A stretch of DNA of 64,000 nucleotides from a virus: IMG/VR virus record IMGVR_UViG_3300042401_001747, one strand, 5' to 3'. Of the stretch, positions 9,983 through 55,500 are shown piece by piece. The position numbers and the translations under genes were made by a program. The notes below the pieces were generated by a model. That model ran no database searches. It was not told the DNA's origin and saw only the letters and a program-made list of their open reading frames with translations. Numbering within the stretch: position 1 is the stretch's first letter; each line of letters starts with the position of its first letter.

Positions 9983-10055
9983 GTAGAGAATGGTACCACC
10001 ATGAGTACAGACTCCCGTAGGGTACCCGTGGCACTTTGCGTGACCATCGAGAAAA

Positions 10056-10421: not shown

Positions 10422-10457
10422 CTGCGCAGAGTATCACTCCACTAACGAGAGGGGTGG

Positions 10458-10631: not shown

Positions 10632-10861
10632 GCCTTGTACCATACAGCCTTAGATAGGCGAGCGATGCTAGATGCCTGCTGAGGTGATGAGCAAGGGATA
10701 CGCCTAATGATGCGATGCGTATCATCTGATGTCGTTACTGATAACCACACCTCCACGATGTTACCTATGGCATTGATGTAGGTGACTGTCCCCTCTGATG
10801 CTAGGTCAATGATGGGTGAGGTGAGTAGATGGTCTATTGGTGATGAGGTGATGGTGTTCAT
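10628..10861 (-). CDS. hypothetical protein (C-terminal 77 aa of the 209-aa track ORF)
   Basis: TTTACT-17bp-TACTGT promoter 7 nt before ATG 10861; sequence upstream is low-complexity. Confidence 0.65.
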   Translation of the reverse strand: MNTITSSPIDHLLTSPIIDLASEGTVTYINAIGNIVEVWLSVTTSDDTHRIIRRIPCSSPQQASSIARLSKAVWYKA

Positions 10862-10899
10862 GTGAAGGACAGTACACGAGGGGTGGTACACAGTAAAGG

Positions 10900-22570: not shown

Positions 22571-22757
22571 ATCTGGATGGCATCGGAGTATTTAAGGACG
22601 GGATATCCAGGAAAGAGGGTTTGCTCTCTTCCGGTTCGGGCTTTGATTTATTTTTCCCGGTTGTGCGTATTTTTGCAGTAGGCAAACCCCTGGCTCCTAT
22701 TTGGTCCAGTTCTAAGCTAAAAACTTTTTTCTGTTCGTCTTTTTTACCAAGGGCCAT
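22524..22757 (-). CDS. hypothetical protein
   Basis: ORF track; overlaps the giant ORF stop. Confidence 0.55.
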   Translation of the reverse strand: MALGKKDEQKKVFSLELDQIGARGLPTAKIRTTGKNKSKPEPEESKPSFLDIPSLNTPMPSRYVKPLKTRKKKDGDE

Positions 22758-25700
22758 AGTGTTGACTTTCTAACATGTTTGCTTCTGCTTCTTCAATGTC
22801 GTACCTAAGCACGTCTGCTTCTTCAATATTTCCAATGCCGTAGTAGAGAATCTGTGGAAACTCTACCCTATTGCCGTTTGAGTAATCTCTGACCCACACA
22901 AGACCATCTCTCTCAAATTCGGTCCAGGCATGAGGGAATCTAAGCCCCTCTGCTTCTCCTCCGGTACCAAGAGGATAGCCGTGTACTATTTTTACCTTGT
23001 CGTAGGCATCGGCCAGTTTTCTAGCCTGCTGTATTGCTTCACTAAAGCAGTCACCCTCTCCGTCGGGGACTTTTTGATTAAACTTTTTCTCAAATTCGTC
23101 GTCATGAAGCTGAACGCTCTTTGGTTTCGCTTTTTTAACCGGTTTTTTACCAGAAGACAATCTCGTGTTGTTTTCTCCGTCGGTTTTGATAACCAAAGCA
23201 CCCTTTTCTTGTGGGTCAAAAGCACCAACTTGACGAAGTGTGATTATTTGCCTGTAGGCCTTTGACTCATCTGGCTTCACGCTCACTACTTCAAGTCTGC
23301 CTCCGGAAACAAACTCTCGTGGAGTCATTCCAGCGTCCTCGTCATCCATAGCATCGTAATACTCTTCATGGTCTTCAGGTAGCGGCTCGCCTTGCCATTC
23401 ACGTTGGATGGTTTCGTTTCCGACTTCATCTAGCGCTTCTTCTATGTCTATTTTTATGTTTGACTTCTCTAGTGGGGTTTTGGCTTCTCTATAGTCTTCG
23501 ACAAGCTTAATTAGTTTGTCAGCAAACTCTTTATCATAATCAGCGTTATCTTCATCTACTTCTCCATTTTCTACATCAGCCAGTATCGCTTCTGCAAATT
23601 CGTTGATGTTGTAGAGAGTGTCGCTTTCGTGTCTATTGGAGAAAACCGGTTCAAACGTTCCTCCAGTTTGATAAGAACCAGGGAAGTCCTCCAACACCAA
23701 AAGGGCATCGCTGCCGAACCTGGTCAAGAAATGGTCTCCTCTAGGAGATGGTCCAATTTCAACAAAAGCAAGTAGAGGGATATCCACCTGACTACCAACC
23801 TGCATTGCATCAAAGAACTGTTTTCCTTCTTCTGGTGAAGAAAACATCATGGCTCTATATAGATAGGGTTGTCTATCATATTTTCTGCCATTAATCAAAG
23901 AATCAACAACACTCGCCATTAGGTAGCGTGCTTGCTCGGTTCTCTTTTCGGGAGACACTGTTGTTTGAAATTTTGAGTTTCCAAAAAATCCACCGCTTTG
24001 GCTAATATTCGGGTCTCTCTCCGAGTACTCGTCTATTCCGGCAAGTTCATATGCTGCTGTTCTTATTTCGCGACATGGGTCCCATTGCATCCAGTCTCCG
24101 CCAACAGACTCTTTAACTATGTCGTCCCTGTCTTCTTCACTATCGTCTGGAGACGCTCCAAGAACTTCGAAATCAACAATCTCTTCAACTGTTTTCCATT
24201 CTGGAGTATGAGATTTCTTGCCTGAAGAAAGTTTTTGAACTGATTCGACGGGCTGGTCATTGGTCATGACGTTTCCATCGGGCATGATTGCTCCAGTAAG
24301 GTTTGCACCAGTCAGGTTTGCATTAGAAATGCGTGCTCCAGACAGGTTTGCTCCTTCCAGGTTTGCCCCGGTTAAGTTTACGTCAGTTAGGTCCACTCCC
24401 TCAAGGTTCGCCCCAGACAGGTTTGCGCCCTCCAAGTTAGCACCTCTGAAAAGTGTTATGTTTGTAAGAATTGCTTTAGACAAGTCTGCGCCCCTAAGGT
24501 CCGCGCCAAGAAGATTTGCACCAGTCAGATTTGCACCAGTGAAGTCTGCATTCTTTAAGTTTGTATCAGACATTTGCGCGCCAATCAATCTTGCAAGCTT
24601 TAGGTTTGCACCTTCAAGGATTGCCTGAAACATGTTTGCCATTTCTAGGTTTGCGTATTCTAGGTTTGCCCTGGTCAGGTCTGCATTGGTCATCACGGAC
24701 TGGCTCATGTTTGCTCTGGTTAGGTTTGCTTCGGTAAGGTTTGTATCATTAATGTTTGCTTTAATCATGCTGGCTTCAGTCAGGTTTGCCCCGCTCAGGT
24801 CTGCCATGTATAGGTCTGCGCGAGCAAGTTCGGTTTCCGACATGTTTGCTCCACTGAGATTTGCCTTAAATAGGATGGCGTCTTCCATGACCGCGCCAGT
24901 CAAGTCTGAATTACTCAGGTCTATCTCTCTCATTACTGAAAACTGCATATTTGCTCCAGATAGATTTGCTCCAGCCAATTTTTTACCTTCAAGTAAAGTA
25001 TTGCTTAAATCCATGCCTCTTATGTCTGAGCCAGAATTAAAGAGTTCTTCTATTGTGTCGGAGTTCTCGAAAATAGTTTCTCTTCTTTGTGTGATACTTT
25101 CAAACGCTTTATCAATATTAGCGATATTTACATTTTTTAATTTTTCCAACAATGATGGTTTCTCCATGCTGCCCACACTTTCTGGCTGAATAGCGTCCGT
25201 GCGTACAGCCAAGACCCTCATTGGTTTACCGAAAAGAACAACCTCATCTTCATTTAGACATCCAAAACCGGTTAAAGCATTAGAAAACACGTCCTCGACT
25301 GGTACAAAAGTTTTAATCAACGTAGGAGTGCCCGTGCCGGCGGTGCTGTATGTACTACTGAATGAGCGAGCAACGTCCATACTTGTGGCCCACGAAGACA
25401 AAGGTCTCATTGTGGTGTCCATTGACTCAATCTCGCCCGCCAGCAACCGAGTGTCTGATTGCGTAAATCCTCTATATGCAGGAATGTGCGTAATTCCCTT
25501 GGTTTTGTAATACAGCTGAGTGGAATCGTATATTTTTTGGAGAATAGGTCTAATCATTGCTACTTGTGCATCGATTAGTTCGGGGGCTCCGTCGAACTCA
25601 TGGGCCGGCATGCCTTCTTTTTCATCTAGACGTCGAGCCCGAAGAGGCGACGTCGACCAGCCAACGGCTTCGTCCAAGCCAAACATTTTTCTTATTTCGT

Positions 25701-28700
25701 GCTGTATTGCAAGAGCAACGGGGTTTGCGTTATTGGCAGATATGGCCCAAGTATGAATAAGGTCAGAAACTAGGGCTTCTCGAACAATGCGTTTTCCTTC
25801 AGTGGTTTCCACATCAAAGAACACAACCCCTGTCTCCTTTGTGTAACTTTCTAGTTTCGACTCATAATTTCCAGCCCTAGAACGTACGTTTCTCAACAGG
25901 TGTTCTTTTAGTGCTTTTTGAACTTCTGGCGAATCAATGCTTGAACTATCAACTTTAACTAGTCCTGATTTTATTATTTCTTTTAACTTTTCTAACGTGA
26001 GCTGATTTTTAAACTCGGGCATAATATCCGAAAGTTTTTCAAGGTAATCTTCATCGTTAACGTCAAGAGACGCCATTGCATCTATTACCTTACTGCTTAC
26101 TCCGCGACCCAATAATGAAATTAGTTCATACCCTTGCTCGCCTGTTTTGGGATTAGGTTCACCTATTTTAGCGAGTCCAAAAGCCTTGCCTTCGTTTTCT
26201 TTAATTTCGGCAATAAGATTATTTAAAAGCCCGCGTCGTGGAATTAACTCATCTAGAAACTCTCTTCTAATATCGTCAGTTCCAAGTTTTGTCATCAAAT
26301 AAGGAGTAAAAAGTGACCTCATGCCGCCATCTGTAGCCATTAATTCAGCAAAAGATGAAGAACCAAAAAGTTCACCAAACTCTTCTGTTTCTAATTTGTC
26401 CAATATTTCGTCGTAATACCGTGCTCGACCAAGAATGTCGTCATGTATTTTCGCTGCAATAACACGTCCGCTTTTTGTATCAAAGGCAGCTCTAGCGGCT
26501 GCTCTTCTTTCTGTGCTTGTAGCATCGACCGGCAAGTTTTCTAAAGTTTTATACAGTCTTTGTACTGCTGCAAAAGTCTCCGTGGTATGAAAGCCGTGAC
26601 CTGCTTTGTCTGTAGCAAAAACGTTAATAAATTCTTGAACGTCAAAATCTACTGAGCGAGAGAGGTTTGCTGCAATTGTTATTTTAGCAATTGCAGAGGC
26701 TTTTGCGTTAGATGGAGTACCGCTTAGCTCTTGGAAAGAATCAAACTCTAAAGCCAAGGCTTGTACATCTTTCAATACTTCGTCCCTTAAAGTTTGTTCA
26801 TCGGGTACCGGTGAGGCTTTGAGTAATTCTTCAGATGGTTCAGGAGCGAACGAAACAAGACCTTCAGGCCTCTCCACCACTGGAGGCTTACTCTTTTCCT
26901 CAACGGTTTCTTCTTCGGTTTCTTCTTTTCTAAATCTTGAGAAAATTGTTTTACGTTTGCCCTTTTTGGCACCCGAAGAAAGACGGTTTTCTGAGCCAGC
27001 TTCAGAATCGCTCCACGGAAGGTCCTTTTCATCAACGCCAATTAGTGTATAAATATCTTTTCTAAGTTTCTTGCTTAGAGTCTTTTCTGGCATTTCCTTG
27101 TTTGGATGCATTATTGCAACAAAGGCTTCCGCCATAGCCTCTCTTTTGTTTATGTTTCCGTAAGAGGTGGATAAGAGAGGCTCGTCGGGGTGGGCTCTGA
27201 ACATTTCTTCAGGGCTTCTCCCTGTGAGGTCGATGAACTGCGAATAGATTTCTATTCTCTTGTCGTCAGTTTCGTAGTCACCATATTCTTCTGCAACATC
27301 AAGTGAAGCCACGTATCTTGGGTCAGAGAGTTTTCCGGTTCCGTAATATGAGCGCATTTTTCCTGATGCGCCGTTTGTTTCCGTATCCCAAAGTGCTCTG
27401 TGATGTATCCAGTGTCCGAACTCGTGAACAAGTGTTCCTTCTAGGGACCTGTCGATATGAGCGTCTCGCGGTGCTGGAACCCGGTCTGGGTCAAAACTTA
27501 TTGGATAAACATCCTTGTCGTCATTAAGTAGCGACTCTCTGTCGATTAATGCTCGAGGGGAAATTCCTATAGAACCCAGGGAACGGTTAGCAAGGCCGCT
27601 TATGAATGGTATTTTCTCCGTTCCGCGCTGCTTAGCAAGAAGGGCAAGACGTTCCTTCATGTCTGGGCTGTTTTCGTAGGCATCCATTCCTTCGCGAGTA
27701 AACGGAACAATCAATGGTGCTCCGAAGTTTTGCATTACCCACATAACAGAAGGAGAGGAATCCAGCAGGTCTTTTACTAATTTTTGTGTAGCAGCTATTG
27801 ATTCTGGAGAATAATCAACAGGAATATTGGTTGAGTCTTTTTGTAGCTCCGCATAGTAGTTCCTAATGAACGTTTCGCGATTTTTATCGGTGCGCCATGT
27901 TGGTCCAGCAATATCATCAGCCCACATCTCAAAATACTCTTCAGCATTTGTTGGAATAATAACCTTAGATATTTCATCAGAGTTAAGGTCTGCAAGCCAT
28001 GTTGAAGAATCTCTGCGAACTATTTTTCCTGAGGAACCCTGTGTCCCGTAACCGGAAGCGTTGGGGCCTTCTTGCTCCCTCTTTGACGGAACGTTCATAG
28101 GTATCATTTCGCGCTGTCTGCCAGAGGAAAGACGGTCGTTCTTTCCCAAAATATCGTGCGCAAGAGCTAATTCAATATCTTCTTCGTTGGCTTCATAAAT
28201 TGGCTTGCTTCCAGAAGACAGTCGTCCACTAGTAGATGCTGCATCAAGCTTCTTAAGAACTGAATTAAAATCACCAGCATATATACGCGTTTCGGAGTCA
28301 GATACGCCTTCAATATTGAATACGGTTCTTGGTCGATTACGGTAGCCCATTGTTTCATTCATATTTAGGTCGTACTCGTCAAGTCTGCCAACCCTGAGCA
28401 TTCGTTCGGCGGAGTACATCATGTAATGAAGATGCTTAACGACTATTTTTTCTTGAGGCGTTAGAGGTGAGTCTGGGTGGTCCGCAAGGGACATCATGGC
28501 AAGGTCGTTTGCCCATTCTCCATGGCGGTCAAAAGCTCTACCGGTTCCGAGATGTCCGAATAGGTCATGGGTGTCTTGAAGTGCCTTGCCATAGAGTCCC
28601 ATATTGAATTTATGCGGGTCAGTTATTCCACCTATGTAGCCACGAAGATATGTATCCGTGCTGTGGCTGATTCTTGAACCTGGAAGAAAAAACTCCTCGT

Positions 28701-31700
28701 CACCCATTAGTTCGCCCGCACGGCGCGTAAGTTCCCTAACAAACTTGCTATGTTTTTTCCACGCTTCAAGATACGGTTCCGGCAATGTGTCTTGAGTTAA
28801 TGCTGGCAAACTAATACTGTCGCCCCTGATGACAAATCCTTTTGGAGCCAACATTTCCAACAGGGGGAATCTTTCCCTCGCCTCGTCGTTTTCAAATTCT
28901 AAAGTAGAAGCGTCGTTTTTGTATATTTTTCTTGCAATAATGTTTCCGTCGGAATCTTTCCATACGGAACCATTGAAAACAACGACGTCATTCATTGCTT
29001 CGTCAAGTATTGAAACAATGTCGTCTCGTTTTGGTAATTCGACCGTGCGCCAGTCGCGCTTGTCTGGTATCTGTTCTGCTAGTTGAGGTATTGGGTCGGC
29101 GGATACAAAAGGAATTCCGTCTGAAGCAATATCAATCGATATTGATTCAAGTAGCTGTTTTCCGGTTTCGGAAAACGCATCGTCTACTTCAACGTCAAGT
29201 AGTGTTTTCCCAGCAATTTCTCTGGTCAAGCCGGGAATAGCATCTTCAATAGAATATTTCTGTTGTTTTGTTAGTTCTTTTCCTGTCGTTTCTTCTATTT
29301 TTTTAATTATTCTCTCGGCAACTTTTTTACCTGTTAAAGACTCTCTAGTTAGGCCTATGTCGGCGGCTTCTTGCTGAGTTACTTCTGTGGGTTCATTAAA
29401 TGCTTCAACTACATTTGCGCCAGAAGCAAGACGGTCGTAGACTCGAATATTTAAACCGGTACGATTTGCTCTTATCTCTTCTTGGGTTTCAAGTGGTGTT
29501 CTCCAATCAAAATCCTCGGGATAGTCGTTTTCGCTGTTTACGACAAGTTGCCTATCGCGAGCCCAAGAATCAAGTTTACCAACGAAGTCGGCAGCATCAT
29601 CGTCATCGTTTTCTCCCTTCAATGGAATCGTAAATGACACCGACCCTTCATTGTCTTGAGTCATCTTGGTTACAGATATTCCGCTATCTTTTATGAACGC
29701 ATTAAGCTTTCTGGTTGTTGGCGGTCCGGCAAATTTTGAATCATCCTTTTTTGGGAGACTATCACTAACGAGAAGCACGTGTTCCGAATTGTAACTACGT
29801 TGACGTCCTACTGCTCCCGTATACATGTTGACTGTTCTGACCCAGGGCCCATTTTCATCGGAACCGTCGAACTCATCTGTAAGGTAATCACCAATACGAA
29901 TTTTTTCCCGATTATTTTTATTTTTTTTGAATATTGCAATAAGTTCTTCAGATGATGGAAGTCTCCATCTTGGCTCCCCTGGTCTTGCCTTGTCATTTAA
30001 TTCAGATATTAAATAAAATGCTTCATCTTGCGAAATATTTTCTGGGGAATATTCTCGTGAGCTTAGTAAATCTTCTGACCGTACTTGTATTTTTTTAGGT
30101 GTTCTACCTTTTTTTACTGGCCCGATAGTGACCACTTGATTGCGACCAGAAGAAAGCCTTGCACTTCCCTCTTCTTTTTGGGCTGCAACAAAAGACTCTT
30201 TGTCTGATTCAAACTTTTCTACATCTGCGTTAAATTTATCGTTGTCGGCTTTTAGCTTTGCGTCTCTTTTTTCTTTATCCAAGACGTCAGTAGACCATCC
30301 GTTTTCAATCGCTCTATCGATTATCTTCTGCATAACCTGACTGGTTGCAAAAGCGTCAGCATCGGCGTTGTGGTGACCCTCACCTAATTCAACATCCAAA
30401 TATTCGGTTATTGCAGCAAGACTGCTGGATGGTTTCTTATTTCCATCTCTATCGATTATGTATGGGCCTTCCGGGCTTTCTTCACTCCATACAGGCAAAG
30501 TCATTGCGCTTATATCTCTCGTGTCAAGATAGCCAGAAGGACGCCAATCTATTCCTTCTCTTTCTAACGCGTCTTCAAGCACCCTTTTGTCAAACGTTGC
30601 ATTCTGTACACCAATGATTGCGTCTGGTCCAATAAACTCAGCAACTTGTCTATGAGCTTCCGCCATTGGCATTTGCGTAGCAAGCCATTCGTTGGTTATT
30701 GGGCTACCGTCTGCATCTTTAAGGTTTGCTAAAGACCATTCACCAAGAGGCTGTTCGGGATTCATGAAAAGATTTAAGCGGCCTATCTCTTTGCCGTTCC
30801 TCATTCTCACAAGACCAATTTGTGTCGGGTTGCCGTTTGTGGTTGCTTTACCGAATTCGTCGAAATCTAATCCAGTTGTTTCGTAGTCAAGAAATACCAT
30901 TTCGGTTTCGGCATAGCGTTCCCTGAACTCTTCCCAAGAATTAACGCCATCAAATCTTTCTTGCGCTCCTTCAAGGAAAGCACCAAGCGTTGGTTCGCGT
31001 GGGTATCTTGGTGCCCTGCCGCTAGCCAGTCTTGCCGATGAACCAGATAGTGAATCGTCGTCTTTTAATTTTCTAGACGTAGAAACCCAAGTGTTTTCTT
31101 TTCTGTTGGCTATTCTAAGTAATGCGTTTTTGCTTGCTTCTTGAAAGAATGACGTACTGGATGGAACGTCTGCATACCGTCTTTCGGCGGAGATGTGTGT
31201 ACGATTTACCTGTTCTAGATTTGCTAGCGTCAAGTCGGACGCAACATTTGGAGAAACGCCAAGCATTTGTGCCCTGATTCTTCCAGCATTATCTGCTCCC
31301 GGCGTTCCAGAATTGCGCTCTCCTCCGACCAGCACATCTATGCCGTCGGCCCTCAATATATCTTCTACTTTTTTGCGCCCGTCTTCGCCCTTTTTTATTT
31401 CTACCAATTTGTAACTGCCTGGAGGAAAACGCAGCCCATCTCCTGGTGGCGGCGATGCCGCAGTATCAACTATATTAAAGTTTTCTAAACTGTCTGGGTT
31501 TTCCTTAATGAAGGAATCCAGCGGTGCAATAACTACGTAAGACTCGCCTTCTGTTTCCTTTCTAAACAAGTGTCCTTCAGCTAGATGGTTTACAGCAAAA
31601 TGAAGTGTTGTTCTATTAACCGTAACTTCTGTGCCGTCTTTGGCGGTTTGTGGAAAGTCTTCCAATGGACGAAGAACTAAATAACCTTTTTCATCTATTG

Positions 31701-33573
31701 TCGGTTTATAGGAAGTTTGATGAATCATTCGTGCATCAAGAGAAAGAGCTTTTTCTGGATTGTCTACTGCGGGGAGCTTGCTGTCTAGTTTTTCCAGAAG
31801 CGAGTCGCTGTATTTTGCAAATTCATCAAATTCTTTTTGTGCGTCTTTATCGCCTTTTGATGCCGCATAAAGAAGGGCGCTTACATAGCTTGAAGCGTTG
31901 AAGTCGCTACTTTCCGCAAGTACAGAAACATCTGCACCATGAACCGCTGAATACCATTTTTGTGCTGCTTTTCTTCCTTCTGCGGAAGAGGGGTCGAGTT
32001 TAAGTATTTCAAAAGGGTTGAGCGGCAGTTTTTTTATTCCATCACCAAACTCGGCCTGTTCATGGGCTCCAAAAACTATCGATTCGTTGCCAATTTTAAA
32101 AACTTGACCTGTCCATATGTATTCTTTTGGAGTAAAGCCTTCCTCCACTACCGGTGAGGAAGAGACGTTTGACGTTTTTAATAAAAGGTCAGACTCAAAA
32201 GTGTAGTCACCATCACGAAGAACGTCTTCACCGTCACTATATTTTGCAAAGAAGCCATATTTTCTGAATCCTTTTGCTCCGTAATCCGCTGTTCCGTTGT
32301 TTACATAATTAAACCATCTTCTAGTTTCTGCACTGGAAGTAATGTTTGTATCTGGGTTTTTGATAAGAACATGGTCAAGAAGGGCTTCTAGGACTCCTGC
32401 TTTTTGCGATTCCTTGCTTGCATTGTAAGAAAGAAGCTTAGTTGCTTCTCCTGTCGGGGGTTCGGAAAATGTAAGGCTTGCGATTTGTCCGCTTTCGTCC
32501 TCGATAAATACAGAAAAACCATCTTCTGATTGAGAAGTTTTTATGTCATATCCATCGCCGTTAAAACGAATAGAAGAATACTCTTTGCCGTCCCGAGAAG
32601 TTTCTAGAAGTTCTGACGGGTTGCGCTTGTCGTTATAGTCCGCTGATTCGTCGTAGATATTTTGTGCGTTATAGCGCCTAGCTGCACCGCTAGAGAGTCT
32701 TCCCGACGAGGGAGTGGCTGCAGAAAATGCTTTTCCATCTTCGCTCAGTGCGTCGCTATGCTGAAGGTCTCTTTCTGGAAAAACCTCACGGTGGGTATTA
32801 AACATTTCAGCAGCAATGCCTCTTCGCCTATGGCCGCCGCGTGTATTTATTTGAAAAACTTCGTTTCTGTCTTCTACATACCATGTCTCTAATGCCGCAA
32901 TGATTTTCATTTTTTCGTCACCAAGCGCGCTACGTAGTGCATCCTGCATATCTACGTCATCTATAGATAGTGGTGATTTTTTCCCATTAAAAGGGTTTTC
33001 TCCTTGTTGATTAAAATTATCAAGAAGTTTTTTGCGCTTTTCATCTACCGCAGAAGATGAGTAAGCCCTTACTTCGCCATCTTTATCCAGAACTATCCAG
33101 TAGTCTTCTTCTTTACCCTTTGGCTGAGTTGACCTAACTTTTTTTGCAGCTTTTAAGTTTCCATAGTCATAAACTTCAATCTCCGAGAGTTGAGTCATGC
33201 CGCTAGATAGTCTTTTTGGCGAGGGTGTCTTGTCAGAAGACGAAGACGCTATTGAATCCGGAGTCCCTGGCTTTTTCCCTTGACCGTCAATTCCGACCCA
33301 TACTGGCTTTGTTGTTCCCTCATCTGCCCAGCCATCACCGTCAACGTCCATTCTGGAGCCGGTAGGTTTTCTTTTTCCCGGCTTACCGCCCGTGGGGAGC
33401 TCGATATTTCCGAGTCTTCTTCTTTTACGTCCTTCGCCAATTGTCGGTCTATTTACTCCGCGAGAAGCTAAATACTGACCAAGTCGCCCTACGGCCGCTT
33501 TTTCCTCTTGGTTGGCCGCCAGACCGCGTCTGGACTCCTCGAAAGGGATGGGGAATTCATTATCGGAAGACAT
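22744..33573 (-). CDS. 3609-aa polyvalent protein / putative polyprotein (GNAT, DEDDh exonuclease, DUF1566-like, zincins, ART, pentapeptide repeats, Cys-His-Asp domain)
   Basis: RRRGIA (GNAT); FLDYETTG...HNADAD; WRLPSSEEL; HDLFGH; HEFGH...EAMAEAF; YRGF/SSWATS/EDE; A(N/D)LxG repeats; GDCF...HAWTE; ten (R/K)L(S/A)SG motifs. Confidence 0.88.
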   Translation of the reverse strand: MSSDNEFPIPFEESRRGLAANQEEKAAVGRLGQYLASRGVNRPTIGEGRKRRRLGNIELPTGGKPGKRKPTGSRMDVDGDGWADEGTTKPVWVGIDGQGKKPGTPDSIASSSSDKTPSPKRLSSGMTQLSEIEVYDYGNLKAAKKVRSTQPKGKEEDYWIVLDKDGEVRAYSSSAVDEKRKKLLDNFNQQGENPFNGKKSPLSIDDVDMQDALRSALGDEKMKIIAALETWYVEDRNEVFQINTRGGHRRRGIAAEMFNTHREVFPERDLQHSDALSEDGKAFSAATPSSGRLSSGAARRYNAQNIYDESADYNDKRNPSELLETSRDGKEYSSIRFNGDGYDIKTSQSEDGFSVFIEDESGQIASLTFSEPPTGEATKLLSYNASKESQKAGVLEALLDHVLIKNPDTNITSSAETRRWFNYVNNGTADYGAKGFRKYGFFAKYSDGEDVLRDGDYTFESDLLLKTSNVSSSPVVEEGFTPKEYIWTGQVFKIGNESIVFGAHEQAEFGDGIKKLPLNPFEILKLDPSSAEGRKAAQKWYSAVHGADVSVLAESSDFNASSYVSALLYAASKGDKDAQKEFDEFAKYSDSLLEKLDSKLPAVDNPEKALSLDARMIHQTSYKPTIDEKGYLVLRPLEDFPQTAKDGTEVTVNRTTLHFAVNHLAEGHLFRKETEGESYVVIAPLDSFIKENPDSLENFNIVDTAASPPPGDGLRFPPGSYKLVEIKKGEDGRKKVEDILRADGIDVLVGGERNSGTPGADNAGRIRAQMLGVSPNVASDLTLANLEQVNRTHISAERRYADVPSSTSFFQEASKNALLRIANRKENTWVSTSRKLKDDDSLSGSSARLASGRAPRYPREPTLGAFLEGAQERFDGVNSWEEFRERYAETEMVFLDYETTGLDFDEFGKATTNGNPTQIGLVRMRNGKEIGRLNLFMNPEQPLGEWSLANLKDADGSPITNEWLATQMPMAEAHRQVAEFIGPDAIIGVQNATFDKRVLEDALEREGIDWRPSGYLDTRDISAMTLPVWSEESPEGPYIIDRDGNKKPSSSLAAITEYLDVELGEGHHNADADAFATSQVMQKIIDRAIENGWSTDVLDKEKRDAKLKADNDKFNADVEKFESDKESFVAAQKEEGSARLSSGRNQVVTIGPVKKGRTPKKIQVRSEDLLSSREYSPENISQDEAFYLISELNDKARPGEPRWRLPSSEELIAIFKKNKNNREKIRIGDYLTDEFDGSDENGPWVRTVNMYTGAVGRQRSYNSEHVLLVSDSLPKKDDSKFAGPPTTRKLNAFIKDSGISVTKMTQDNEGSVSFTIPLKGENDDDDAADFVGKLDSWARDRQLVVNSENDYPEDFDWRTPLETQEEIRANRTGLNIRVYDRLASGANVVEAFNEPTEVTQQEAADIGLTRESLTGKKVAERIIKKIEETTGKELTKQQKYSIEDAIPGLTREIAGKTLLDVEVDDAFSETGKQLLESISIDIASDGIPFVSADPIPQLAEQIPDKRDWRTVELPKRDDIVSILDEAMNDVVVFNGSVWKDSDGNIIARKIYKNDASTLEFENDEARERFPLLEMLAPKGFVIRGDSISLPALTQDTLPEPYLEAWKKHSKFVRELTRRAGELMGDEEFFLPGSRISHSTDTYLRGYIGGITDPHKFNMGLYGKALQDTHDLFGHLGTGRAFDRHGEWANDLAMMSLADHPDSPLTPQEKIVVKHLHYMMYSAERMLRVGRLDEYDLNMNETMGYRNRPRTVFNIEGVSDSETRIYAGDFNSVLKKLDAASTSGRLSSGSKPIYEANEEDIELALAHDILGKNDRLSSGRQREMIPMNVPSKREQEGPNASGYGTQGSSGKIVRRDSSTWLADLNSDEISKVIIPTNAEEYFEMWADDIAGPTWRTDKNRETFIRNYYAELQKDSTNIPVDYSPESIAATQKLVKDLLDSSPSVMWVMQNFGAPLIVPFTREGMDAYENSPDMKERLALLAKQRGTEKIPFISGLANRSLGSIGISPRALIDRESLLNDDKDVYPISFDPDRVPAPRDAHIDRSLEGTLVHEFGHWIHHRALWDTETNGASGKMRSYYGTGKLSDPRYVASLDVAEEYGDYETDDKRIEIYSQFIDLTGRSPEEMFRAHPDEPLLSTSYGNINKREAMAEAFVAIMHPNKEMPEKTLSKKLRKDIYTLIGVDEKDLPWSDSEAGSENRLSSGAKKGKRKTIFSRFRKEETEEETVEEKSKPPVVERPEGLVSFAPEPSEELLKASPVPDEQTLRDEVLKDVQALALEFDSFQELSGTPSNAKASAIAKITIAANLSRSVDFDVQEFINVFATDKAGHGFHTTETFAAVQRLYKTLENLPVDATSTERRAAARAAFDTKSGRVIAAKIHDDILGRARYYDEILDKLETEEFGELFGSSSFAELMATDGGMRSLFTPYLMTKLGTDDIRREFLDELIPRRGLLNNLIAEIKENEGKAFGLAKIGEPNPKTGEQGYELISLLGRGVSSKVIDAMASLDVNDEDYLEKLSDIMPEFKNQLTLEKLKEIIKSGLVKVDSSSIDSPEVQKALKEHLLRNVRSRAGNYESKLESYTKETGVVFFDVETTEGKRIVREALVSDLIHTWAISANNANPVALAIQHEIRKMFGLDEAVGWSTSPLRARRLDEKEGMPAHEFDGAPELIDAQVAMIRPILQKIYDSTQLYYKTKGITHIPAYRGFTQSDTRLLAGEIESMDTTMRPLSSWATSMDVARSFSSTYSTAGTGTPTLIKTFVPVEDVFSNALTGFGCLNEDEVVLFGKPMRVLAVRTDAIQPESVGSMEKPSLLEKLKNVNIANIDKAFESITQRRETIFENSDTIEELFNSGSDIRGMDLSNTLLEGKKLAGANLSGANMQFSVMREIDLSNSDLTGAVMEDAILFKANLSGANMSETELARADLYMADLSGANLTEASMIKANINDTNLTEANLTRANMSQSVMTNADLTRANLEYANLEMANMFQAILEGANLKLARLIGAQMSDTNLKNADFTGANLTGANLLGADLRGADLSKAILTNITLFRGANLEGANLSGANLEGVDLTDVNLTGANLEGANLSGARISNANLTGANLTGAIMPDGNVMTNDQPVESVQKLSSGKKSHTPEWKTVEEIVDFEVLGASPDDSEEDRDDIVKESVGGDWMQWDPCREIRTAAYELAGIDEYSERDPNISQSGGFFGNSKFQTTVSPEKRTEQARYLMASVVDSLINGRKYDRQPYLYRAMMFSSPEEGKQFFDAMQVGSQVDIPLLAFVEIGPSPRGDHFLTRFGSDALLVLEDFPGSYQTGGTFEPVFSNRHESDTLYNINEFAEAILADVENGEVDEDNADYDKEFADKLIKLVEDYREAKTPLEKSNIKIDIEEALDEVGNETIQREWQGEPLPEDHEEYYDAMDDEDAGMTPREFVSGGRLEVVSVKPDESKAYRQIITLRQVGAFDPQEKGALVIKTDGENNTRLSSGKKPVKKAKPKSVQLHDDEFEKKFNQKVPDGEGDCFSEAIQQARKLADAYDKVKIVHGYPLGTGGEAEGLRFPHAWTEFERDGLVWVRDYSNGNRVEFPQILYYGIGNIEEADVLRYDIEEAEANMLESQHYGPW
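24280..25030 (-). repeat. pentapeptide-repeat coding region (A-N/D-L-x-x)
   Basis: About 250 aa of ANLSG/ANLTG/ADLRG repeats inside the giant ORF. Confidence 0.93.
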
Positions 33574-43507: not shown

Positions 43508-44875
43508 TCAGGCTGGTGCGCTGTTGAAGGTTACTTCGACGAATGCTTCTGGGCGCTTGACAGCGAGTGCAAGTCTTTGCTCTGCAAGGATAACGATTGC
43601 GTTGCGGACGAAGAAGTCCGAATGCTGTTCGCTGATGCGGATGCTTGCTTCTTCACGGTCGTACAACTGTGCTCCGGTACCGAAGGCTCCAACAAGTGCC
43701 TTACCTTCAGTCATTGCTGGAGTGTCAACGATTGGCATACGCCAGACGCGTGGCTCGCCACCCATTGCAACCGAAACTGCGATGAGGTACTGGCCGTTAG
43801 TGTCCTTGGTAAGCTCGATGTCTTCCCAGTCGTTCGGGTGAAGAACGATGCCGCTTGGCTCGTAGTACGCAAGGAACGACAAGGTTGCCGCACGACGAAG
43901 TGCATCTGCCTTGGTGTCTGGTACTGGCAGAGCTGCACCGCTTGACCAGTTGTATGTCTGAATGTTTGGTGTGTTACGAACGCCCAACAAGTTTTCACCA
44001 GCACCGTTACCGTTGAGGATTTGGTTATCCTCAAGGAGACGGAGACCGTACATCAATTCGTTGTCGATGATGCTGCGGAGCTGTGGCTCGTCTGCAAGAA
44101 CGTTACGGTGTGCTGCTTCCCAATGTGCAAGTGTACGCACTGGAGCCTGCTCACCAACGAAGGCGAACGAAGACTGTGGCTTGACACCGAATGCGGTATT
44201 GCCGGCGTTACGCTCTGCAACTGTTGATGCACTGTTTACGCCTGCTCCAGCCTGCAAGGTTGTGAAACCAAGTTGACGGAAGTATTCGATAACTGCAGCG
44301 TTTGTCTTGCGGACTGGGAACAAGTCACGAACACGCTTTGTACGTGTTGGTGGCAATACCATTGGGTCACGCTGTACGGAACCAAATGAACCAAGACGGC
44401 TATCGGTTACTGCTGTTGTTGGCAGACCCGAGTAAACGTCCTTTACGTTGTAACCAGAGGTGTATGAAGTCAACGATGCAGCAATTTGCCATGGTGAAAC
44501 CATGTTTGCTCCATTGCGGCCACCATTAAGTGCCTTGAACTCTGCTGAATCAGTGAACATTTGACCAATTGACTTGATTTCATGTGATGACAAGCTACCA
44601 AGGTCTGCTGCAGCGGCAGCATAAGCTGCTCCTGTGGAGCTACCTGATGGCTGTGATGCCCAGTTATCAACTTGGTTCATGGTCTCAAGGTCACCGATAA
44701 GGCCCTTGATTTCTTTGATGTCGCGCATGTTCTTGTCGAACGCTGACTTTTGCTCAGGAGTAACGACTACTGTGCCGTCCTCGATTTTGAATGAATCTGC
44801 GATGGTCTTATTGTCTGCCATCTTTGTGCGAAGAGCTGATTGTAGTTCTTCTGTACGTGCTTTGTCTTCCGACAT
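43508..44875 (-). CDS. major capsid protein, HK97 fold
   Basis: VRTLAHW...VLADEPQLRSIIDNELMYGL...EDNQILNGNG...LHPNDW...FVRNAIVILAEQRLALAVKRPEAF; N-terminal delta domain; AGGAG RBS. Confidence 0.95.
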   Translation of the reverse strand: MSEDKARTEELQSALRTKMADNKTIADSFKIEDGTVVVTPEQKSAFDKNMRDIKEIKGLIGDLETMNQVDNWASQPSGSSTGAAYAAAAADLGSLSSHEIKSIGQMFTDSAEFKALNGGRNGANMVSPWQIAASLTSYTSGYNVKDVYSGLPTTAVTDSRLGSFGSVQRDPMVLPPTRTKRVRDLFPVRKTNAAVIEYFRQLGFTTLQAGAGVNSASTVAERNAGNTAFGVKPQSSFAFVGEQAPVRTLAHWEAAHRNVLADEPQLRSIIDNELMYGLRLLEDNQILNGNGAGENLLGVRNTPNIQTYNWSSGAALPVPDTKADALRRAATLSFLAYYEPSGIVLHPNDWEDIELTKDTNGQYLIAVSVAMGGEPRVWRMPIVDTPAMTEGKALVGAFGTGAQLYDREEASIRISEQHSDFFVRNAIVILAEQRLALAVKRPEAFVEVTFNSAPA

Positions 44876-49052: not shown

Positions 49053-49557
49053 TTATGGCCTTTTCTATACTTCTCATAGTCTTAACTGAAAGCCACGCAA
49101 AGTCGCGTTCTTCTAGCGACTTAAAGGCGTAATCGTTTACGTTTAACTGTACCACCTCGCTGCAGCACGAGTTGGAAAGCATGCGGCGAGTGATTTCGTC
49201 CAGTCGGAAAGACTTAACAGACTTTTCAGTTTTGTCTATCTTTTTCTTATTTTTACCAAGCGCTGAATGCATTGGCATCGAGTCCATGAGTGAATCGTTT
49301 ATTGGACGTGTTTTCTCAATAAAGGTTTCGTACCATGCTCCCGACAAGGGGTCTTTGGGGGAGTCCCATACGAATCTTTGAAAAGGAGTGTTTCGTAGTT
49401 TTGTAAGATTTCTAGCCGTACTTGACAAGTGCATTAAATCCATTTTTACAATCGAGCCGTCAGCCTTCTCAACAGCCGCATCCTTCTGGCCTCTTTTTGC
49501 GTCCACGTCGTAATAAACACGCGAGTCCCCAAGAAGCGCTACAAGTGCAGCTCTCAT
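49039..49557 (-). CDS. hypothetical protein
   Basis: ORF track; GGAGG RBS, ATGA overlap. Confidence 0.7.
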   Translation of the reverse strand: MRAALVALLGDSRVYYDVDAKRGQKDAAVEKADGSIVKMDLMHLSSTARNLTKLRNTPFQRFVWDSPKDPLSGAWYETFIEKTRPINDSLMDSMPMHSALGKNKKKIDKTEKSVKSFRLDEITRRMLSNSCCSEVVQLNVNDYAFKSLEERDFAWLSVKTMRSIEKAINDEQ

Positions 49558-52500
49558 AGCTTTCCTCCATATATGGATGTCACTTTTGGCTTATTTGTGG
49601 TTTTCATTTGCTTAAGTAAGTCTTTCGCTGCTGCAATAATTTCCTCAGCTATGGAGTCCTTAAGGGTTGACTCAACAGACTGGCCTGCTTTGGCACTCTT
49701 TGAATGAGAGCGAGCGTCTTCAATATTGAAACCATTCGGGTGAGCAAACTTGACATTATTCAGGCCACGCTTAGCAAAGTCGTCTTTCATCTTCTGCGAT
49801 GCTCTGTATTTACGGAGCATGGACATGCTTGCCGTGTCTAGCGATTGTCCTCCACCCATAGAGTAGAAGTATTCAATCTCTTCTTGAGAAAATCCAGCTT
49901 TTCTTAACTTGTCAGCAATCGATACGGCATCAACAACGTCGGAAATGTCTTCTTTCGCCGAGGCGGCTTCAATCTTGCTCAATGGAACGTTTATTTGTTC
50001 GATATCAGCAACGTCAAATCCGCCCAGAATCTGAGCCTCAAAAGGTTCCCTGGTGGAGCCTTCGGGTAGTTTCTTGTCGAACGAAGATGGCATTTTTCCA
50101 CTAGAGCTTCTTGATGCGTTTGCGTTCGAAAAATCGTTATTCAAAGAAGAAGAGAGCATATGTAGAAGAGCTTCTCGTTTTGTTTCTTCAGCGTTTACTC
50201 CGTCGGCATTAAGGATTGCGTCAGCTACGTCATCTCTGTTACGCGAGTTAAGCATTACGGGCCTGTGAGCCGAAGTGAGAGCATTGCCTCGTCCGTAGGC
50301 GACTCGGTTTGACACTCCAGGGCGCAAAACTATTTCCATGTCACCCAGAGCAGTTAGGCCGTCTCCAACCAAATCTTCGTCCCCTACTTCAAACACGCCA
50401 TCTGGTCTGAGGTTTCCAGGCATTCCGCCTTTTGTAATCTGGGCACGTTTTGCATCCATGTGAGATTTGTGAACTAGATATCCACTTACTGGCATCATGT
50501 CCGGGTCAAGAGAACCGGGAAGACCTATTCTTGAATAGTATTCGCTAGCGTAGTTTTTAGGAGACATTCCTACCGTCTTGCCTGAAGCAGGAGCCTCAGT
50601 AGTCTTTCCACTGCTCAGTCTCTTGCCTTTACGCATTTTTGCCAACCTGCCAACAGATTCTCTTTCTGCGGGAGCATCTGCCGAAGGTTTTGTTCTCACA
50701 TTACGAACGGCTGCGTCAAGTTCTGCCTCACGAGCCCGTGCTGCTGGACCAGCTCTTCTCGTCAGTGCATCTTGTTGCCGAGTCAATACTTCTTCTGCAT
50801 ATGCAGGGTTGTTTCTCATCCCGACTGAATCAATCTCGATAAAGTCACCTTCTGCATAGATTTCAGCCGCAAGGTCATCCATGCCGTCGTTGATTTCTTT
50901 CAGCACCCTGTCTCTTTCTCCAATTTTAACTTTCTTAACATCGCCTTCTTCGAAGTCAACAGCTCCAGTAAGTTTTGCGTCCTTGATTCCTAATCCTCTT
51001 TGAAGAACTTTTGTTAAAGTAAGACCACTAATGATGTCTGTCTGAACTTCGTCAACGTGTAAGGGGATTTGCTGGTCGTCGTCTACTTCTCCGTTAAATA
51101 CGGTTATTGCGCTCCATCTATGGTGTCCGTCAAGTAGCAACTTATCTGAGGTTGCCAGAATGGGGTCCATCATTGCACTGGTACCCCTTCTTTCAGAAAG
51201 TTTAGCCTTAGCATTGGTGTCTTCTTTTAGGGCTTGAATTAAAGCATCGGTGAATTCTTTTGTTCCCCTCTTGTATCTTCCGTCTTTTGTAAGAACTTCG
51301 GTGTAGTGCTTAACGGCAGCTTTCAGTGATTTGTGCATCCCATCGGTCTGTACGGCATCTAATTCCTGTTGAGAAGGAGTGTAATCATCCGGGTTAACAG
51401 CCAGGTTTTCTTTTATTGAATCGTCACCCAATTTCCCTCTAATTATTTCCTTAATCATTTCTTCTCCGGAAACTTCAAAAAGATTCCAGTCCATATTTTC
51501 TATTACGAACTGTCTGTCTTCATCTGATATAGAGGCAGCGGATTCTGGACTCTCCTGAATTTTTTCCATGATTCCTTCAAATCTTTTTTCACCGTCCCAT
51601 GTTTTTATTTTATAAGGGTCAACATGTTTATGAGGGGCCTCTTTGATAGGAATCTGTCCAGCAAGACCGAGCTCTGCTCCGCGAGTATTTGCTCCTGCTA
51701 AGCGTCCACCAGCCTGAGGCATTTTTGCTCGTGGAATACCAAAATTGTTTCCGCAGAAAACGTTTTCGTCTCCATCGTAGAAATTGCAAAGATTCGTTTT
51801 GTATTGGTCGCCAAACTTTTTTAAGAATTCTTTTTTTATTTTTTCTTGGAAAACGGAAGGGTCTACGCCGTCGGCACCATCGATTTTTTCTGCTTCTGCC
51901 TTAAAATCAAGCCATTCTTTTTCATTATTGGCAATAATGTCTTCACCCATTGTTTCGATGTCTTTGAAGAATTCTTGCTGGAGTGTTTTTGCAAAACGTA
52001 AAGACTCTTTTTGTTTTTTAGCTATTGCTTCGTCGGAGGAGTACTCAAGGGTGACGTGATGACCCAGCGCCATCAATGCTATTGCTTGCCCGACATTGTC
52101 AACCTTATAAACAGCCATGTCCTTGGGGTCTGAGCTCGTAAATAACGGCTTCATGTCGCTTGGTTTTACCGAGTCACCAAAATCTTCTTTCAGCTCTTCA
52201 GGGGTGTATTCGTGAAGAGGTTTTCCGCGCTTACGAACTTTTGCTAGAACGTCTCCGGCTATTTTTCTAGTCGCATCCCTCTGGGCATTGACTTGTCTTT
52301 CTTTTGCCCTCGCTGCATAGTCTGGATTGTTTGAAAGACCAACCGAGCCAAGCTGAATAAAGTTTCCTTCGGCGTACTTGTCGTCCACAAGAGTTCCTAC
52401 GTTTTTGGTCAAGCCTTCCATGAGTTCAGATATTTCTTCCTTACCGATGTCGGTTATTTCTCCCTCTTTCCACTTGTTTTCAGCTCCGAGGCGCGCTTCC

Positions 52501-55500
52501 TTAATTCCCCAAGCGTCCTGAAAAATCTTTCCTAAAGTTAAAGCTTCAATTATGTCGGTTTGTATTTCATTAGCCTTCAAGGGGAGCTGTAGCTCTTCTG
52601 GGAGTGAATTATTTCCAACCCTTATTCCTGCCCATCTGTGATGGCCATCAACAATAAAACCATCGTTTGCTGTAAGAATTGGCTGCATGAACCACTGCTT
52701 GTTCATCTCTTCTATGTATTTTGTCCTAAAGTCTTCGTCCGATATTCCAGGATTGTCAGCTCTTATACCCTCGGCAACTTCTATCGCTTTTGTTTGTATT
52801 TGTCTAGCAGTAGCGTCTACTTTTGATGCAACTAGCTGTTGTTGCGAGGGGGCATAATCTTTAGGATTAACTTCTTTGAGAATTACTGAAGGTTTACCAT
52901 TTCCTGGCTCAATGACGCCATCTAGCCATTCTATAAACGGTGTCTCCAGGTTTACTTCTGTGTCGTTCCAGTCTGTATTTTCATATAGCCAGTTTTTTGA
53001 AGCATCAGACAATTTCTCATAAGACTCCGTCTTATGTTCCTGCTGTGTTTTGCCTCCGAATTGATTTCTTAGTGAGTGTTTTTCTGAAACTATCTCATAA
53101 AGTTGTTTTGAAATCTCTTCGTCTGTCAATTCTGGTTCGCCTTTTTTGACTCTACCAGCATTGGCTTTAGCTACTGCTGCGTTAAGCTCTTCTGCGAACT
53201 CTGCTTCAACGGCAGCATCTCTTTTTATTGTCTTTAGGGGTTCAAACTTTCCGGCAGCTTCTCCGGCTTTTAGCGCTCTTACTGCGACAGTATCGTGACC
53301 TGCAGACCTTCCGTTTGTCTGAGGCATTTTTTCTCTATCGATACCAATGTGTCCCGAACACAGCAAGTTTTGTAATGGGCTATATAGGGCACACAGGTCG
53401 GCCTGGTAGCTTTCTACATAATTCTTTTCCATTTCTTTAACAACTTTCGGGTCGTTAAAATCTAAATCTTTAAATTCTTTTTTATACTTTTCTTGATACT
53501 TGACCCATTTAGGGTGAGGATTTTTAGCATCAATATGCTTTTTTGCGGCATTTTTTACTTCTTCTTCAAACGCCTTTTGTGACTGCTCAGTCAGTCTCAG
53601 GTCCTGGTCCTTAACAGCAACGTGATGCCCCAGCATCATTAATGCAATTGCTGTTGGGACGTCGTTGACTTCATACAGTGTGTCGTTTGTGGCGCTGACT
53701 GATTTTTTCTTAGACTTCTTTACTTTTCCGTTGAAAGCCGCAAAGAGTTCCGCCTCAGACATGTCGTCAATGTTTTTGCCGTCTCCGCTTAAAACTTTGT
53801 CAAAAATGTCAAAAGCCTGTGTGGCGACTTCTTTTTCTTGTCTTTTTCTTTCAGCTAGATTGGCCGAGGAATCAATAACTCGACCGGATGAAAGACGTGA
53901 AGAACGCTCACTTGGCCCCATTCCCGAGTATCTTTGTGCTCTACGTGATGTTCTCTTTGCTTCATCGTCTGGAGAAGCAAAAGAGGACCTTATTGAACCA
54001 GTGGAAGATAGTCTCTCAATGTCGTCGTCGGTGGCGCGAACGCGAACTCTTCTATCAAAGCCTTCGTGCATTCTGTACGCAGTATTCTCGGCTCTCGCTA
54101 ACAAGTCTTCTTCGGGAGTGTCAGCGATTAAACGAGCTACGTCTGGATGAATGTCGCCCCTTGATAACGGGTCGGCCGAATCTCCCTGTCCTCCTCCAAG
54201 AATGGATTTAACTTCCCTAACCTGAGAAGACATTGATTTGTTTCTTGATTCTGTTCTTTGCTTGCGTGTGGCAGGAGCGCCCAGTACGTCTTTCTTTCCA
54301 GAAGACAAGCGGGAACTTGAGTCATCAGACGACAAGTGAGGGGGTAGTTCGTCAAAACCTTCTCCGAAAGAACCACCAGCGTCCACAACCTCGTCTACAA
54401 CCGTTTTGCTTGAGGTTTCTGAGACGGAATCGTAATCACTTCTAGAACCACTAGAAAGTCGCCCTGATTCACGGCGGGAGTTAACGTACTTGTCTGCTAC
54501 TGCTTTGATTTTTTTACCGTGACTTTGAGCCCAAATGGCGTCAGTTTTGTTTGTTTCCAAACTGTGAGCCATGGAGTCAATAACCTCAACAGAGTCTTTT
54601 TGATAAGACAACTCTGCTCTTACTGTTCCATCAGGGTCTATCCCCGTAATGCGAAGGCGTCCAGGTGGAGCAACGAAGCGTTGGTCGTCATCTCCCGCTG
54701 CAGGGAAGAGGCCCCTGTCTCCCTCGCGAACCTGTACAACCACACGGCGAGCGGTTTTCCCAGTTTCTTTGTCGCGAATTCCTTTTTCTGGCATGTCCAG
54801 TTTTTTTGTTTTTGTCGTCAGGACCTTGCCGGAAACAAATTGTGGCATTTCAATTTCTTTGCCTTCAATTTTTCCTCGTAAAACACCTGAATCGAAATCA
54901 ATAACTGTTTCCATCTCAAATGGGTCAGCAATAGACGTTCCGTCAATTACTTCCATGACTGGGATTAATAGATTCTCTACCTGCTGGACGACATCGCCTT
55001 CTTCAGATGATTTTTCATCAACCGTAAGTCCCAGTCTCTTGATTCTGGCGTTTCTTTTATTTATTGCTCTTCCGGCCCTGGTTTGAGCTACGGGGTCAAG
55101 TAGTTGTCCTACATCTGAAGATGCAATGTCCCCGAGTTCTTTGACTGCCTTTTTCTGCTCTGCTGTTCCGCGAACTCGACGACGTTCTTTTAACGCATGG
55201 TCTTTTGCTTCTTGCTTACTCTTTAAGGACACGTTCTTTTTCGCTGGAGGAGAAATCAAATCCTTAACACTCTGGTCCAGATTTTTCTTTATTTTGGCAG
55301 TTGTTGACTTGTCTCCTGCGTCACGCATATTTTGTACATACTGCTCTTTTATGACGTCTATCTTTTCAATTAGGTTTTTAGCCTCATCGGAAGAAGGGTC
55401 AAGAGTGCTTAGATATATTTCGTCATCAGCCAGGCGTCGAACTATCTTCTTTTCTGGCATTTTTTCTACAGACTTACGAAGGTCATCGAGGGCTGCTATT

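Follow-up and report, generated by a model that had tools for sequence, protein, structure and literature searches.

Introduction

Polyvalent proteins of phages and conjugative elements were defined by Iyer, Burroughs, Anand, de Souza and Aravind in 2017, and that survey already proposes delivery of these proteins together with the DNA, their processing by embedded metallopeptidases (MPTases) or assemblin-like peptidases, and an analogy with the polyproteins of RNA viruses (PMC5512222). Among its passages worded in terms of cleavage, processing or linkers, we found none on a recurrent inter-domain site (PMC5512222). Here we describe such a site in P0001, a 3609-amino-acid (aa) open reading frame (ORF) on the minus strand (22744..33573) of a 64,000-nucleotide (nt) stretch of DNA, hereafter the window, from an uncultured freshwater phage of ~157 kb (IMG/VR record IMGVR_UViG_3300042401_001747). 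A five-residue motif of P0001, (R/K)L(S/A)SG, has good support as a dedicated inter-module signal, and we consider it probable that it is a processing signal, that is, that the chain is cut there at all.

P0001 combines biochemically disparate effector and enzyme domains, as the definition of polyvalent proteins requires. Like polyvalent proteins, the system to which it belongs holds many unrelated effector domains (nuclease, zincin, ADP-ribosyltransferase (ART)-like, ArdC-N, helicase and, in relatives, GNAT). It differs from them in that a countable motif bounds every cassette, is common to three proteins and changes by lineage. The layout is also different: where the survey describes assemblin-like peptidases, they are C-terminal (PMC5512222), whereas in this phage a peptidase of family S78 is N-terminal.

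A second precedent is the prohead protease. In T4, and in phiKZ and SPN3US (gp245), this enzyme cuts head and ejection proteins, with their N-terminal propeptides, at a short, phage-specific motif; the site of T4 gp21 is L/I-x-E, cut after the E, and that of SPN3US is A-x-E (PMC10052503). The phage described here likewise encodes a prohead protease, and its motif has a three-residue core and recurs in several proteins (three giants), including the polypeptide of the protease; if our reading is right, the likeness would extend to propeptides that target cargo to the prohead and to a protease that cuts itself. In T4 and SPN3US, however, the cuts mostly remove one propeptide from single-function proteins (IPI-III, Alt) and also mark the capsid protein, whereas here up to ten internal sites would split a chain into enzymes and the capsid protein is unmarked. 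Moreover, the protease is of family S78 rather than S77, and the P1 residue would be Ser rather than Glu.

The herpesvirus assemblin site is V/L-x-A, cut before S. HK97 gp4 (MEROPS S78) stands alone as a protein of ~225 aa and acts on the delta domain of the capsid protein. The protease of the present system resembles gp4 in its Peptidase_S78 match above the cut-off, in its conserved His and Ser and, in a relative, in its position next to the portal gene. It differs from gp4 in forming the first ~200 aa of a cargo protein of 2300-4900 aa, with its presumed sites in the cargo and not in the capsid protein. The polyproteins of RNA viruses and retroviruses offer a third comparison, in that there is one product with an embedded protease and short consensus sites between units, and a possible -1 frameshift between protease and protease-cargo fusion in one lineage (named for its motif STRS, below) recalls Gag-Pol. 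Unlike in those viruses, the phage is a tailed one with double-stranded DNA (dsDNA), the proteases and domains are unrelated to theirs, and what is released would be accessory effectors, not a replication core.

Results

A repeated motif divides P0001 into eleven cassettes

The motif [RK]L[SA]SG occurs ten times in P0001, at aa 121, 292, 848, 1139, 1381, 1784, 1814, 2197, 3114 and 3471. An initial annotation of the window, made from the letters alone, had listed the same ten copies, with nt values that are the low plus-strand coordinate of each 15-nt site, and both sets of positions are correct. Composition predicts 0.034 copies, so that the motif is ~300-fold enriched, and 20,000 shuffles of P0001 never gave more than two copies. 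Also as annotated, the codons differ between copies while the peptide is conserved: our codon listing gives AGA/AGG/CGT/CGA/AAA for R/K, CTA/CTC/CTG/CTT/TTG for Leu, TCT/GCT/TCC for the S/A position, AGC/TCT/TCG/TCA for the next Ser and GGC/GGT/GGA for Gly. Thus selection acts on the peptide and not on the DNA. A separate account of the repeats, that they are a DNA-level recombination joint, is ruled out by this codon variety.

The motif copies delimit eleven cassettes, which follow one another in the order c4-c14-c10-c1-c19-c5-c8-c0-c2-c7-c6. Each is given below with the evidence for its description.

22744..33573, minus strand: P0001, a polyvalent protein of eleven motif-delimited cassettes (ORF; 32 homologues)
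33199..33573, minus strand: c4, aa 1-125, N-terminal leader, ending in RLSSG at 33199-33213 (first segment in 25/33 family proteins)
32686..33198, minus strand: c14, aa 126-296, possible GNAT, ending in RLSSG at 32686-32700 (faint GNAT profile matches)
31018..32685, minus strand: c10, aa 297-852, no assigned function, ending in RLASG at 31018-31032 (PDB profile search, faint matches)
30145..31017, minus strand: c1, aa 853-1143, RNase_T/DEDDh exonuclease, ending in RLSSG at 30145-30159 (Pfam PF00929, E 3.9e-10)
29419..30144, minus strand: c19, aa 1144-1385, Lcl_C/DUF1566-like, ending in RLASG at 29419-29433 (Pfam PF07603, E 4.6e-7, below cut-off)
28210..29418, minus strand: c5, aa 1386-1788, HDxFGH domain, ending in RLSSG at 28210-28224 (modelled fold, high confidence)
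28120..28209, minus strand: c8, aa 1789-1818, 30-aa peptide, ending in RLSSG at 28120-28134 (modelled helix packed on c5)
26971..28119, minus strand: c0, aa 1819-2201, HExxH zincin-like, ending in RLSSG at 26971-26985 (weak MPTase-PolyVal and lethal-factor-type matches)
24220..26970, minus strand: c2, aa 2202-3118, conserved N-terminal domain plus pentapeptide repeats, ending in KLSSG at 24220-24234 (Pfam PF00805, E 1.6e-63)
23149..24219, minus strand: c7, aa 3119-3475, ADP-ribosyltransferase-like fold, ending in RLSSG at 23149-23163 (weak ART fold matches)
22747..23148, minus strand: c6, aa 3476-3609, papain-like Cys-His-Asp domain (Foldseek probability 0.99 to 8z3i and 4g29)

The module labels proposed in the annotation fared unevenly. 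Those of the DEDDh exonuclease and the pentapeptide repeats stand on Pfam matches, and the Cys-His-Asp domain is retained with a papain-like fold, its closest folds being protein glutaminase 8z3i and SseI 4g29 (deamidase/glutaminase-type), with staphopain among the weak matches. The DUF1566 (Lcl_C) label stays below the cut-off. The HExxH zincin is weakly matched (MPTase-PolyVal E 0.048, 14 bits against a cut-off of 27.5; a lethal-factor-type zincin in Foldseek at probability ~0.9 but E 0.04), as is the ART-like region 3119-3475. The GNAT label of aa 126-296 is faint (RibT profile, E 0.07), and the clear GNAT Pfam matches in the family belong to another cassette, one that P0001 is without. An ART annotated within aa 2202-2830 was not found by Pfam or PDB profile search, and PF03496, listed as precomputed for three homologues, was not reproduced in c2 or c9; the R...S...ExE residues that are invariant in the family alignment of the c2 N-terminal domain would nevertheless be compatible with an ART. 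PDB profile searches of c14, c10 and the N-terminal part of c2 gave faint matches only. Since Foldseek on both structural models described below gave no match at E <= 0.001, the fold assignments are weak.

Elsewhere in the window, a six-frame scan found four copies of [RK]L[SA]SG in a 2897-aa ORF, one in the ORF at 60020..64000 and one in a 28-codon junk frame, while relaxed versions were not found in the capsid protein or in other ordinary window genes. A megablast search of 16 kb against GenBank phages gave no match. Relatives in IMG/VR include a 98%-identical fragment, L001, and the complete genomes G001-G003 (156-159 kb, with direct terminal repeats), in which the motif is nearly confined to three giants plus one ORF of ~1600 aa. 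This last ORF, on the plus strand (G002:48995-53782, G003:119784-124604), has KLSSG at open-frame aa 36 or 41, where a short N-terminal propeptide would end; a PHROG search gave it no function. A literature search on RLSSG returned only acronyms of restless legs syndrome.

Motif copies lie in linkers in structural models

Two AlphaFold2 models built on family alignments cover six of the ten sites. In the model of P0001:3099-3609 (mean predicted local distance difference test (pLDDT) 74.8), motifs 3114 and 3471 are within segments of pLDDT <50 (model residues 1-21 and 367-389), between two confidently folded domains, and in that of P0001:1370-2215 (mean pLDDT 81.1) motifs 1381, 1814 and 2197 are again in segments of pLDDT <50. 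The domains flanking these five motifs are at pLDDT 80-95. As modelled, then, 5/6 of the sites are in disordered linkers, where the annotation had expected all of them, and the sixth, at 1784, is in an exposed loop that connects c5 to the 30-aa c8. Two of the four sites outside the modelled regions flank the Pfam exonuclease domain externally.

Homologues keep the motif and shuffle the cassettes

With P0001 aa 1386-2201 as query we recovered 32 giants, whose lengths are 2125-4703 aa and whose identities are 27-100%. In 32/32 of them LSSG, present in 4-13 copies, ranks first or close to first among repeated 4-mers, and only words of the pentapeptide repeats outrank it. The R/K that precedes Leu is typical of some lineages only: the extended logo from 306 non-redundant sites is S(-3)-x-[R/S/K]-L-S-S-G-[K/R/A], in flanks that are hydrophilic and poorly conserved.

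When the 33 family proteins (P0001 and its 32 homologues) are cut in silico at [LF][SA]SG, the segments fall into ~25 cassette families of near-constant length, such as 283-293 aa for most exonuclease cassettes, 132-138 aa for c6 and 357-371 aa for c7. Between family members the cassettes are permuted, gained and lost. Some members place c5 ahead of c0 and others behind c2, c7 comes before c1 in P0007, P0008 and P0010, and the equivalent of c14 is found at aa 3352-3521 of a 4250-aa homologue. BLAST homology breakpoints (n=6660) lie a median of 12 aa from a motif, compared with 94 aa for random positions, and 46% of them are within 10 aa of one, compared with 7% at random; the pairs are not independent, and the effect is large. 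The annotation had predicted that homologues would retain the motif while their module content varied, and this is what the 32 homologues do.

There are two ways of reading a conserved peptide in such positions. The first is that it is cut, while the second, already offered as an alternative in the annotation, is that it stays uncut within flexible linkers, where it would be the docking or recognition site of, for example, a chaperone, a packaging partner or a Ser-modifying enzyme, with the giant working as beads on a string. The partly ordered loop around site 1784 would suit the second. However, a docking element need not mark every cassette boundary or directly follow a conserved leader, and the free permutation of cassettes argues for their independent function. 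The motif is also present in the protease-bearing protein itself (below), and no binding partner or modifying enzyme has been identified, none having been searched for. We therefore think docking unlikely, and prefer processing.

An S78 protease heads a motif-bearing giant

The other motif-bearing giants of the window belong to its head module, which comprises an HK97-type capsid protein, a giant of 2897 aa and a third giant that runs off the window.

43508..44875, minus strand: major capsid protein, HK97 type, without the motif (phrog_10, E 6e-57)
49554..58247, minus strand: second giant, 2897 aa, four RLSSG sites at 50607-50621, 53883-53897, 54297-54311 and 54447-54461 (motif scan)
60020..64000, minus strand: third giant, C-terminal 1326 aa in the window, one RLSSG at 61592-61606 (motif scan)

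The third giant has a total length of ~2916-2940 aa, with its N-terminus outside the window, and we read it in full from the 98%-identical locus L001:1106-9925. Its domains there are Peptidase_S78 at aa 32-175 (PF04586, 42.8 bits against a cut-off of 21), ArdC-N, MPTase-PolyVal (E 9e-39) and a UvrD-type helicase. This S78 domain is the one capsid protease that we could recognise in the phage. Each genome has a single S78, always heading a motif-bearing giant (a frame of 2300-3381 aa), and it is the only peptidase family present in every motif-bearing genome examined. In one relative the portal gene lies directly upstream of the S78-led giant. His70, Ser134 and His166 are near-invariant in 46 S78 domains, and we assume that their role is catalytic. 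ClpP and S49 were not found in five genomes. Nor was S77, where the search gave no match in any control genome either and is thus uninformative. A predicted complex between the S78 domain and P0001:1770-1835, which holds two motifs, scored 0.00, and speaks neither for nor against binding. A literature search on the specificity of S78 returned nothing useful.

The second giant matches no Pfam family, and a PHROG search gave it no function. In its C-terminal part (window 49554-53000, minus strand) there are weak matches to ParB-like nucleases (phrog_2159, E 1e-4; phrog_2859, E 1e-11), and ParB-like domains are typical of polyvalent proteins. The capsid protein and the neighbouring small head genes contain no strict or relaxed copy of the motif.

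The motif changes by lineage

Relatives of the S78 protease domain were found in at least 480 stretches of IMG/VR, of which 80 loci were fetched. The giants of these loci carry DGFAS(R/S)G, GFSS, GLAS(T), RGMASR, GLRS(S), GMRSR, (P)LGSRS, STRS or GLSSG, at 5-17 copies each against 0.04-0.16 expected (~50-250-fold enriched), and the lineage motifs have in common a core of hydrophobic (L/F/M)-x-Ser. In L016, a 50%-identical relative, the giants contain no LSSG and have FASTS five times; in an alignment of protease-led giants, FASTS/FGSTS are aligned with the LSSG/FSSG sites. In complete genomes the lineage motif is common to the protease-led giant and a second giant 35-50 kb away, with 13 + 6 copies of GFAS in the two giants of G006 and 17 + 4 copies of LGSR in those of G007. 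The motif behind the homologous exonuclease cassette is RLSSG in the window, LGSR in G007 and GLASR in G009 (with GLASS ahead of the cassette as well); in G006, GFAST lies ~60 aa downstream of it. That dozens of sites per genome switch together points to one trans-acting reader per lineage. A further candidate, the motif as a relic of former gene ends, is ruled out, since all sites of a lineage switch motif together.

On a tree of the proteases the motif classes cluster, with LSSG forming one clade (99/97 support) and 18 motif-class changes compared with a mean of 28.4 when labels are shuffled, and at least nine motif variants occur among proteases that are 65-90% identical. The LSSG clade differs from the other classes at only four positions of the protease, 26 (L/I), 141 (R/D), 143 (Q/I) and 154 (Y/K), which by this sequence comparison are candidate specificity residues. 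Three of the four lie between Ser134 and His166 (protease domain, L001:1106-1800).

Might the reader be a host protease, the lineage-specific motifs mirroring different hosts? Motif classes do differ among phage lineages that may infect different hosts, and the motif varies although the protease domain of the phages is strongly conserved. On the other hand, each genome has a protease fused to a motif-bearing protein, and we know of no bacterial housekeeping protease with so specific a site of 4-5 residues. A host enzyme thus seems to us very unlikely.

The lineage motifs also bear on c6, which could be taken for a ubiquitin-like-protease-type enzyme that cuts after RLSSG, given its papain-like fold, with staphopain among the weak matches, and the superficial likeness of RLSSG to RLRGG. 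The annotation had drawn the same comparison, with LxGG/RLRGG sites, and this does not hold up: the lineage motifs (GFAS, GLAS, GLRS, GMRS, LGSR, STRS) never contain Gly-Gly, and their shared core is hydrophobic-x-Ser. Furthermore, c6 is present in 16/33 family proteins and absent from G001-G003, whose P0001 homologue has 10-11 LSSG-core sites, and its top fold matches are of deamidase/glutaminase type. We give c6 almost no chance of being the reader. What stands of the annotation's account of the motif is the dedicated inter-module signal, with processing as its best reading; the resemblance to sites of ubiquitin-like proteases falls, and the annotation drew no link between the motif and the S78 prohead protease.

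A more serious competitor is the embedded zincin-type metallopeptidases (c0, c5 and the MPTase-PolyVal of the protease-led giant), which might cut the sites in cis or in trans, possibly only after injection. Processing by such enzymes is the published prediction for polyvalent proteins (PMC5512222). An HExxH cassette is present in 33/33 family proteins, although the search region included that cassette; the MPTase-PolyVal match in the third giant is strong (E 9e-39), and c0 has a weakly matched lethal-factor-type zincin fold. Nevertheless, the motif system persists without detectable MPTase-PolyVal in the L016 giant and in G008 and G009 (these two genomes being 88-91% complete), tblastn with c0 gives no match in G006, G008 or G009 while c5 matches G008 only, and no zincin is recognisable in the second giant, which has four sites. 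Typical zincin sites are usually governed by a hydrophobic P1' residue. The hydrophobic-x-small pattern is nearer to the sites of assemblin-fold proteases than to these. We consider it improbable that the zincins are the readers, and return to S78.

In the STRS lineage (L122:11385-11397, L115:10637-10649, also L111 and L126), an S78 protease ORF of ~470 aa ends in GGT GGT TCA AAA AAA TAA, and a giant of 2881-3080 aa continues in the -1 frame, with a 34-nt overlap with the S78 ORF. The heptamer A_AAA_AAA, a canonical slippery site for -1 frameshifting, is conserved although nearby third positions differ. Judged from these sequences, a programmed frameshift may set the ratio of free protease to protease-cargo fusion in this lineage.

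Genomic setting of P0001

P0001 sits outside the head module, separated by a 35-nt gap from a preceding primase/helicase gene and two small genes. Downstream of it are genes with no assigned function and genes of sugar-nucleotide enzymes. A promoter scan around P0001 did no better than on shuffles, and a terminator scan was likewise silent on timing. A PHROG search gave no function for head-region proteins of 675 aa and 556 aa. The 675-aa protein (window 46385-48412, minus strand) ends in ...KLISGAI, which differs from the motif at one residue and lies five residues from the C-terminus, and its counterpart in G003 (677 aa) has RLASG at aa 209. GC skew is +0.36 in the 2-kb bin 10001-12000, compared with |0.1| or less in the other bins of the window.

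Discussion

We propose that P0001 would be made as one 3609-aa precursor, in which a leader is followed by ten cassettes (enzymes or binding modules) and the junctions are exposed, disordered linkers, each with a signal. One protease, encoded by the phage, would act in trans on these sites and split the precursor into separate cassettes. The reader is most probably the S78 (HK97 gp4-type) prohead protease that heads the third giant; its substrates would further include the other two giants and the polypeptide of which it is part. Because the hydrophobic-x-Ser core parallels the P3-x-P1 rules of assemblin-fold proteases, we place the cut after the invariant Ser, with Leu as P3 and that Ser as P1 (RLSS|G); a cut before the Ser is an alternative. 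Processing would probably take place inside the procapsid, with the leader serving as the propeptide for targeting. Once cut free, the enzymes would be ejected together with the DNA and act early in the next host. Cutting itself, the enzyme, the exact scissile bond, packaging and ejection are all things that we infer, and for the combined claim that the S78 prohead protease cuts the motif, probably within the procapsid, our preference is a narrow one.

The leader, c4, is the candidate for the targeting propeptide. Its conserved core, EFPIPFEESRRG ... LPTGGKPGKRKPTGSR-D-DGDGWADEGTT-PVWVG, is retained even in the 27%-identical P0033, and includes a DxDGDG stretch that is like a calcium site. A 3009-aa homologue of L020 has two copies of the leader (aa 1-107 and 332-444). 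A hidden Markov model of the leader finds a weak match in the protease-led giants at aa ~545-588 (E 5e-7 to 1e-3), a leader-like stretch ~70-135 aa upstream of their first site.

Several observations weigh against this proposal. The family is known from sequences of uncultured phages alone. The place of P0001 outside the head module makes timing and packaging uncertain, and a capsid protein without the motif means that the usual substrate of an S78 protease is not marked. The protease domain is highly conserved (~110 near-invariant columns) though the motif differs by lineage; with only four clade-distinguishing positions in the protease, a change of specificity is not demonstrated, and shared descent alone may account for the clustering of motif classes on the protease tree. 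The LSSG lineage also contains embedded zincins. Lastly, motif 1784 is in a moderately ordered surface loop (pLDDT ~72) and not in a disordered linker.

What is new here is that several giants have an explicit code at each boundary between cassettes, that cassettes are shuffled at that code, that it has at least nine lineage variants, and that a protease forms the first module of one chain. The anti-phage system CBASS (cyclic oligonucleotide-based antiphage signalling system) is reported to use protease-site decoy sensing with T4 gp21 (PMC12991175). Tentatively, and as a possibility that we would not yet back, hundreds of freshwater phages (at least 480 IMG/VR stretches) might share a plug-and-play cargo system, in which a lineage-specific hydrophobic-x-Ser code of 4-6 residues joins effector cassettes drawn from any part of the genome, co-evolves with S78 and diversifies fast, possibly escaping host decoy sensors. 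With processing specified by the linker code and not by the cassette, cassettes would be free to move within a lineage.

If the motif is indeed a cutting code, it would supply a simple rule by which giant phage proteins that defy annotation could be divided, from sequence, into working units, and the predicted processing of polyvalent proteins would become testable, with a named site, a named protease and predicted neo-termini. The lineages would amount to a natural collection of pairs, each of a protease and its site (LSSG, GFAS, GLRS, LGSR and others), with a near-constant protease scaffold, in which the evolution of specificity could be followed. Tailed dsDNA phages would then use a polyprotein strategy at a scale that is usually linked with RNA viruses.

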